A stretch of DNA of 63,942 nt, filler included, from Collodictyon triciliatum (GCA_043381765.1; 23 parts of 23 records of this genome joined end to end with filler, not necessarily neighbours in it), one strand, 5' to 3'; shown: positions 17,329 through 18,747, counted from the whole stretch's first letter. Made by a program: numbers and translations. The notes: a model not told the origin generated them from the sequence alone.

Positions 17329-18747
17329 GTATGACGATGCTCTAGAGTACTACAATAAATCGCTTGAAATTCGAAAAAAGTTTTTGGAGAAATGCACCCT
17401 GATATTGCAGATTTATATAATAATATTGGAAGTGCTTATAATGAACTTGGACAGTATGTTTTATTTTATAATTTATCTAGATATGTTTTTACTCAACCAT
17501 TTTTAATAGGTATGAAAAAGCCATGGAATATCACCATAAATCGCTTGAAATTACTCTGAAAGTGTTTGGTGAAATGCATCTTGATGTTGCTACGTCTTAC
17601 AATAATATTGGAAATGTTTACAAGAATATCGGAAAGCATGTTTTATTTGAATATTTATTTGTGTATATTTTCCATTTGTTAACTATTTGACAGGCATGAT
17701 ATAGCATTGGAGTACTTCTACAAAGACCTCGAGATTACACTGAAAGTTCTAGGAGAAATACATCCTGTTGTCGCAACATCGCACACTAATATTGGAAATG
17801 TTTACAAGAATAACGGAAAGCATGTTTCATTTGAATATTTATTTGTGTATATTTTCTATTTGTTAACTTTTTTGATAGGTACGAAAAATCTCTCGAACAC
17901 TACCACAAATCACTTGAAATTGTGCTGAAAGTATTTGGAGAGATGCATCCTATTGTTGGGAATACATACAACTATATCGGAAATATTTACTATGGACTCG
18001 GAATGTAAGCTTTGTTTAATAGTTTATACTTTACTTTTTATAACCTGATCATTTTTTATAGATATGACAAAGCTTTGGAATACCACCACAAATCACTTGA
18101 AATTGCGCTGAAAGTATTTGGAGAGATGCGCCCTGATGTTGCTGGGTCATATGGCAACATCGGAAACATTTACGAAAAGCTTGGAAAGTAATTTTTTTTT
18201 CTTTCTTAATTCGGTCCAAGGGATGAGCGCGGAAGGTGTATTTAATTTGTAAATTCAAATTTATGAGTTTTATAACTCGATTAATATTTAATAGATACGA
18301 TGAAGCTCTGCAATTCCTCCTTAAATCGGTTGAAATTCGACTGATAATATTTGGAGAAACACACCCCAAAGTTGCCGTATCATATAATAACGTTGGAGTT
18401 GTTTACAGGAATATTGGGCAGTATGTCAAATTTGGTTATCCATTTGCGTGTATTTTTTTTAATCACCGTTTTGTAGGTATGACAAAGCCCTCGACTACTA
18501 TCATAAAGACCTCGAAATTCGACTGTTAGTATATGGAGAAATGCACCACAACATCGGAGATTCTTACTACAACATCGGAAATCTACTCATAAATCAAAAG
18601 AAATACCAAGAGGCCCTGGAGATGTATCAAAAAGCCAAAAATGTGTATGAGCATGTCTATGGCCCAGACAACTCCGAGACCAAAGATGCGGAAAAGCAAA
18701 TGATTAATGCGAAGAAGCATTCTAGAGGAAAATGTTCAATCCAGTGA
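17329..18747 (+). CDS. TPR protein with 42-aa KLC/nephrocystin-3-type repeats and C-terminal CaaX, 5' partial
   Basis: Exons 17329-17453, 17510-17635, 17694-17819, 17879-18004, 18062-18187, 18295-18420 and 18477-18747. Each encodes YDKALEYx.KSLEI.LKVFGEMHP.VA.SYNNIG.VY..LG. The protein ends KCSIQ*. Confidence 0.92.

Follow-up and report, generated by a model that had tools for sequence, protein, structure and literature searches.

The closest described counterpart of a gene that carries its TPR units one to an exon comes from the brown alga Ectocarpus. As set out in the sections of the original account on which we draw, 13 NB-ARC loci of this alga contain 124 TPR exons of 126 nt (42 residues), each described as one 34-residue TPR together with a linker, and relic exons in introns, diversifying selection and a proposed shuffling of exons were reported for these NB-ARC-TPR genes (Zambounis et al., 2012; PMC3341825). 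For brown-algal ROCO genes, the part of the source consulted describes that repeat exons are alternatively spliced (PMC11378527). For the TPR, ANK and WD repeats of fungal NLR proteins, the sections available to us of Dyrka et al. (2014; PMC4986451) take an internal identity of at least 85% as the mark of active shuffling, and propose repeat exchange with concerted evolution as the diversifying mechanism. The Ectocarpus paper was the sole relevant match in our literature search on one repeat per exon, and a search for CaaX-tailed TPR-array proteins with NB-ARC or STAND heads, judged partly by titles, found no description of such proteins. To our knowledge, a C-terminal CaaX is not a known feature of kinesin light chain (KLC) or nephrocystin-3 (NPHP3), two proteins with TPR arrays of the type considered here. 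Further work on the Ectocarpus NB-ARC-TPR genes was reportedly presented by Teng et al. in 2023 in Plant J.

The window analysed here, a stretch of 63,942 bases, consists of 23 unrelated contigs of about 2.75 kb each, ordered by length and separated by 100-nt spacers of the form N44-TTAATTAATTAA-N44 (e.g. 17028-17127 and 19881-19980). A literature search for the spacer motif TTAATTAATTAA gave nothing relevant by title. Since the contigs are unlinked across the spacers, the real context of the TPR gene is positions 17128-19880 alone, which correspond to contig 7, an unplaced contig of 2,753 nt. This contig starts inside the TPR array, and the 5' part of the gene lies beyond its edge. An (ATTT)28 microsatellite near the start of the contig and a dispersed repeat at its 3' edge probably explain why it is small and unplaced. 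Copies of the dispersed repeat with about 93% identity were detected in all four public runs that we compared with contig 7 (X1, X5, the freshwater metagenome X2 and the subsurface metagenome X3), and its segment 19321-19625 matches 38865-39162 on the minus strand of contig 14 (74% over 305 nt). The repeat contains a 178-residue open frame, for which Pfam gave no match, and is probably a transposable element. TPR exons were absent from the other 22 contigs of the window, which, being unlinked, are uninformative on copy number, and Rfam and tRNA scans of the whole window returned no matches. The G+C content of the window contigs is 30-48%, whereas that of the Ectocarpus genome is high.

We consider it probable that the locus is the 3' end of an expressed eukaryotic KLC-type TPR-array gene that was built by tandem copying of an exon together with its intron. 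The gene fragment comprises at least eight repeat units and a C-terminal cap. Seven exons were found on the plus strand of contig 7 (Table 1), five of 126 nt, one of 125 nt and the last exon, and measurement of the exon coordinates confirmed the exon lengths given in the original prediction. That every intron is in phase 2, as had also been claimed, proved correct for all six introns between E1 and E7, each of which splits a codon after its second base. Introns 1 to 6 are 56, 58, 59, 57, 107 and 56 nt long, and the exon-plus-intron unit recurs at 182-185 nt, except for a single spacing of 233 nt. At introns 2 (17636-17693) and 3 (17820-17878), the donor is GC and not GT. Positions 17128-17152 are 84% identical to the E1/intron-1 junction at 17444-17468 (repeat family D6), a resemblance which indicates that at least one more repeat exon lies upstream.

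When a 126-nt exon is gained or lost, the reading frame and the periodicity of the fold are both kept. Symmetrical phase 2-2 exons of this length, which is also that of the 124 Ectocarpus TPR exons in the sections of PMC3341825 on which we draw, are compatible with the central proposal of the original prediction. According to this proposal, skipping, duplication or swapping of TPR exons, whether through splicing or through recombination in the germline or soma, would produce a variable repertoire that is anchored to the membrane, like that suggested for Ectocarpus. We regard this as very unlikely. The modular design of one repeat per exon is the same in both organisms. An NB-ARC head is present in Ectocarpus; contig 7 opens inside the array, downstream of where an NB-ARC or other receptor head would lie.

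Table 1. Position of the exons and of other features of contig 7, counted from the first base of the window.
Feature	Position	Strand	Remarks
Upstream TPR exon, last 10 nt	17128..17137	+	cut by contig start; followed by GTATGC
Intron 0, 191 nt	17138..17328	+	GT..AG; (ATTT)28 microsatellite at 17211-17319
Exon 1 (E1), 125 nt	17329..17453	+	TPR unit with 1-nt deletion at 17372-17379
Exon 2 (E2), 126 nt	17510..17635	+	phase 2-2; GC donor
Exon 3 (E3), 126 nt	17694..17819	+	phase 2-2; GC donor
Exon 4 (E4), 126 nt	17879..18004	+	phase 2-2
Exon 5 (E5), 126 nt	18062..18187	+	phase 2-2
Exon 6 (E6), 126 nt	18295..18420	+	phase 2-2
Last exon (E7)	18477..18747	+	TPR unit, capping helix pair, KKHSRGK, CSIQ, TGA
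3' untranslated region	18748..18834	+	minimum reach of RNA contig (X1 record 1)
Near-identical tract	17602..17693	+	shared with 17786-17878; last 34 nt of exon, GC donor, whole intron
Dispersed repeat	19312..19880	+	outside the gene; depth 300-490 in X1/X5 contigs

Evidence for splicing was obtained from assembled contigs of the public runs X1 and X5. The label of these runs as RNA is a guess, and we took them as cDNA on the grounds of the splicing seen in their contigs and of the SMART-type cDNA adaptor letters found at loose ends. X1 record 1 (823 nt) contains the joints 17819|17879, 18004|18062 (GT..AG), 18187|18295 and 18420|18477 and differs from the locus by a total of 18 mismatches and 2 gaps. 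X5 record 18 (494 nt) shares the last three joints, and the joint 18420->18477 showed 0 mismatches in both runs. X5 additionally joins 17453|17510 (E1 to E2) and 17635|17694 (E2 to E3). Taken together, the joints in X1 and X5 confirm all six predicted introns, including both GC-AG introns, which were used in X5 (17635->17694) and in X1 record 1 (17819->17879), respectively.

In the contigs of both runs, exons E3-E4-E5-E6-E7 follow one another as they do in the genome, and this identical order argues against a mixing of exons; because assembled contigs lose rare isoforms, it is silent on minor exon skipping. A single in-register joint in X5 (17635->17879, depth 6.2) leads from E2 to E4 and would omit E3, the exon flanked by the two weak GC donors, as would be expected if E3 were used as a cassette. 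However, the evidence for this joint consists of 29 nt, E2 and E3 differ by one base over their last 29 nt, and in an X1 contig with the same allele E3 is followed by E4. This makes the joint ambiguous, as the 29-nt overlap fits the end of E3 with one mismatch.

Out-of-register joints, among them 17567->17693, 17774->18062, 17774->18478 and 18103->18590, as well as a joint with 40 foreign letters (17611->17895), fit paralogous transcripts or de Bruijn chimeras and were rejected as splicing. Of the X1 contigs compared, 20 of 25 were only 88-95% similar to the locus, some of them on the 3' dispersed repeat. TPR-like loose ends and mosaic joints among the RNA contigs show that expressed paralogues exist, and the existence of such paralogues is a point in favor of a variable repertoire. 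Both X2 and X3 contain DNA contigs of 151 nt that match E6-E7 exactly or nearly so; X2 record 6 is identical over 18650-18800 and, being the same sequence, provides no independent test of the conservation of the tail. In exon 4, six substitutions within 14 nt (17959-17972) were present in spliced contigs of both X1 and X5, and convert G-N-T-Y to A-N-S-H in the helix-A segment. This cluster may represent a micro-conversion from another repeat, or a difference between paralogues or alleles.

Besides the five exons of 126 nt, one exon had been predicted to be 125 nt long, and this length is right. However, alignment with E2 and an X1 contig indicate that E1 is a damaged 126-nt unit and not a variant cassette. 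The alignment places one 1-nt gap in E1, at a run of A. The assembled frame entering from upstream encodes a good half-repeat, then shifts and reaches a stop 19 codons into E2, and the frame with the CSIQ end becomes open only within E1 and remains so to the stop. In the X1 contig, an additional C behind 17376 restores a regular, open 126-nt unit, and one X5 contig (depth 8.67) covers 17376 without the extra base. The 125-nt exon could reflect a true frameshift in an allele or copy, or else an error of the assembly, and the assembled copy may be a defective allele or copy, perhaps without a full protein.

Could the locus be a transcribed pseudogene or defective allele, with a real deletion in exon 1, a decaying copy, and intact paralogues or alleles that do the work? 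The early stop in E2 and the X5 contig would agree with this, as would the nature of the missing base, a C between runs of A and hence no simple homopolymer miscount, and the position of the gene on a contig that is small, unplaced and flanked by a microsatellite and a dispersed repeat. We nevertheless consider this unlikely, since the 900 nt downstream stay open with dN/dS below 1, the splice sites are intact and used, X1 contains the intact 126-nt form of exon 1, and an assembly error is possible in a low-quality contig.

The ATG in exon 1 (~17393, the Met of G-E-M-H-P) offers another possible reading, in which the gene would encode a short, stand-alone prenylated adaptor of about 300 residues with seven repeats and no N-terminal enzyme domain. 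In line with this, the frame contains no stop between the inside of exon 1 and the one behind CSIQ, and one X5 cDNA contig has an adaptor-tagged 5' end at 17400. However, the candidate start Met is a conserved internal residue of the repeat in five of the seven units, an exon tail and an intron are present upstream, and the intact exon 1 of X1 continues the upstream frame. A cDNA 5' end inside the contig can also be mere truncation, and we find a stand-alone protein hardly credible.

A Pfam scan was performed with the translations of six exons (E2-E6 and the last exon), and all of them matched the KLC-type models TPR_12/TPR_10. The last exon scored 69.1 bits with TPR_12 (cut-off 30.1) and 47.3 bits with TPR_10 (cut-off 27.5). 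Scores of the single 41-residue exons were 19.9-31.9 bits, that is, near or slightly above the Pfam cut-offs, with values of 29.7 bits (TPR_10) and 29.2 bits (TPR_12) for E2, and of 31.0 and 31.9 bits (TPR_12) for E4 and E5, respectively. The six units could be aligned without gaps over 41 columns, seven of which are invariant, and have a tandem period of 42 residues with the pattern Y-x-x-A-L ... G-E-x-H-P ... N-I-G. Units of 42 residues and the same sequence pattern are found in the arrays of KLC and nephrocystin-3 (TPR_12, TPR_10, TPR_NPHP3), but the present protein is not orthologous to either, and its TPR_NPHP3 score was 24.2 bits against a cut-off of 100.

We used the coordinates of the Pfam profiles to define the register of the exons. 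Exon residues 1-24 correspond to TPR_10 positions 18-41, exon residues 1-14 to TPR_1 positions 17-30 (helix B), and exon residues 27-41 to TPR_1 positions 1-15 (helix A). Each exon therefore encodes helix B of one repeat (n) and helix A of the following one (n+1), with the G-E-x-H-P linker between them. The view that one exon encodes one 42-residue TPR thus holds for the length, which is that of one period, but not for the boundary, which splits the repeats. This also distinguishes the locus from the Ectocarpus genes, since the exon boundary lies here between helix A and helix B. The 126-nt exon design that is common to this gene and the NB-ARC-TPR genes of brown algae is best explained by convergence, imposed by a 42-residue repeat, and is no evidence for a shared diversification system.

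An exhaustive phmmer search of 1.84 billion representatives yielded 29,024 proteins at E <= 0.001. The ranking of these proteins follows the number of repeats and therefore does not identify orthologues. Homologue searches with the last exon gave one distant match (33% identity) and no close relative of the tail. Metagenomes were scanned with protein patterns, which gave 541 pattern matches, none of them confirmed, and with an exact 30-mer from exon 6, which gave 0 matches. A single-sequence AlphaFold2 model computed for the last exon was of low quality (pLDDT 62.4), showed one long helix and was set aside.

Pairs of exons are 61-76% identical at the DNA level. Estimates by the method of Nei and Gojobori, which are noisy with 41 codons per pair, gave dS values that were saturated or reached at least 1 in 14 of the 15 exon pairs, the lowest value being 0.49 (E4-E5). 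The dN/dS ratio, subject to the same noise at 41 codons per pair, was 0.09-0.51 in the 13 pairs for which it could be computed. Noisy as they are, these estimates point to repeats that are old copies under purifying selection. Both the near-saturation of dS and a dN/dS below 1 run counter to a shuffling receptor, as does the protein identity of the repeats to the first repeat. This identity is 54-73%, below the value of at least 85% that is regarded as the hallmark of shuffled fungal NLR repeats in the sections of PMC4986451 consulted, although the tandem TPR units of the fungal proteins have the same length of 42 residues.

The near-identity of two neighboring introns had been interpreted earlier as the result of exon-plus-intron duplication. 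Introns 2 and 3 indeed match at 54 of 59 aligned positions, as compared with 41-69% for the remaining 14 intron pairs. When units 2 and 3 are compared, 32 of 34 positions agree over exon nt 93-126 and 46 of 48 over the first 48 intron nt, but only 63 of 92 over exon nt 1-92. Because the identity starts inside the exon, we attribute it to a tract of about 90 nt that arose recently by gene conversion or unequal crossover, and not to duplication of a whole exon-plus-intron unit. The GC donor lies within this tract, and conversion has therefore probably copied it from one unit to its neighbor.

A recent conversion tract would also be in keeping with an exchange of exons, but this short tract is a single one, in contrast to the repeat exchange proposed for the fungal NLRs in the sections of that source consulted. 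Neither diversifying selection nor recent exon exchange was found, as dN/dS is below 1 and the only tract is the one of about 90 nt. In addition, tblastn with all exon peptides detected no relic TPR exons in the introns, the 3' region or the minus strand of contig 7; 9 of 73 matches were inspected, and outside the exons these consisted only of alignments overrunning exons. The absence of relic exons, together with a dN/dS below 1, sets the locus apart from the Ectocarpus NB-ARC-TPR genes. From the proposal of a shuffling cassette-exon receptor we thus retain the modular 126-nt array, one conversion tract and a plausible CaaX end, and set aside the mixing of exons, given their age, the dN/dS below 1 and their fixed order.

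Taken together, the observations show how the array grew. Copying of a unit of about 184 nt, exon plus intron, in tandem placed each period in its own 126-nt phase 2-2 exon, and the copies have diverged since then under purifying selection, with the exons being spliced in genomic order. Local gene conversion still occurs occasionally, and has probably carried the GC donor to the neighboring unit within the tract of about 90 nt. If this ordinary reading holds, the locus provides an RNA-validated textbook case of the growth of a repeat protein by exon-plus-intron copying, and indicates that a short conversion tract can spread a non-canonical GC donor between units.

The CSIQ-stop end of the protein, already noted in the original prediction, was confirmed in the sequence (CSIQ, 18733-18744; TGA stop, 18745-18747), and places a Cys at position -4, behind the basic stretch KKHSRGK. 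In CSIQ, a1 is a Ser and hence non-aliphatic, a2 is Ile and X is Gln. A Gln at position X directs farnesylation, and the a1 position is permissive. We grade the motif as plausible, and it is a credible predicted farnesylation signal. CaaX ends were found in six of the best 150 of the 29,024 phmmer matches (CIIS, CAIM, CVLM, CLII, CIVV and CVVS). Among these best 150 matches, a Cys is present at -4 in six, at -2 in five and at -3 in four, and position -4 is thus not much commoner than the others. The six tails are convincing as CaaX signals because both a1 and a2 are aliphatic in all of them, unlike the Ser at a1 in the protein described here.

The heads of the CaaX-tailed look-alikes include a PARP catalytic domain (P0035), a protein kinase (P0039) and a P-loop NTPase-like start (P0072). 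In common with the present protein, these three have a C-terminal KLC-type array, a short, often basic tail and a Cys at -4, and the alignment of P0072 with the query extends from the last TPR as far as the CaaX Cys. Identity of the look-alikes over the last exon is only 32-41%, too little to demonstrate that the tails share an origin. Comparison of the predicted tails suggests that a lipid-anchored C-terminal TPR array is a recurring design. The recurrence of CaaX ends on KLC-type arrays behind NTPase-like, kinase or PARP heads suggests membrane tethering of sensor-like proteins, and would also suit a membrane-anchored receptor.

For the gene as a tandemly copied array, we infer that the protein is most likely a protein-binding solenoid that forms the C-terminus of a larger multidomain protein. 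Its basic stretch and CSIQ are probably farnesylated, which would tether the C-terminus to the membrane, and for the missing N-terminal part, the CaaX-tailed look-alikes suggest a STAND NTPase, a kinase or a PARP as candidates. A bolder interpretation is that prenyl-anchored TPR arrays with varied heads (STAND NTPase, kinase or PARP) are a widespread class of eukaryotic sensors tethered to membranes, and that the 126-nt cassettes with weak GC donors also yield isoforms of differing repeat content here, which would amount to an independent reinvention of the brown-algal design. This combination seems to us very improbable.

Some features of other contigs in the window were also recorded. A (TCTTTT)n/(CT)n microsatellite (16649-17027) occupies the last 380 nt of contig 6, a different contig from that of the TPR gene. 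The end of contig 10 (27632-28509) and the start of contig 21 (57086-57988) match at 88.6% over 907 nt, and could be either haplotypes that have diverged or repeat copies. An intron-free open frame of 914 residues on the minus strand (51396-54137) takes up a whole contig and contains TMEM132 Ig domains (E 1.3e-12), and its sole database relative has 28% identity, a hint of an animal-like host whose lineage is poorly sampled. Finally, a single-exon open frame of 622 residues on the plus strand (9054-10919) consists of leucine-rich repeats of the LRR_8 type.
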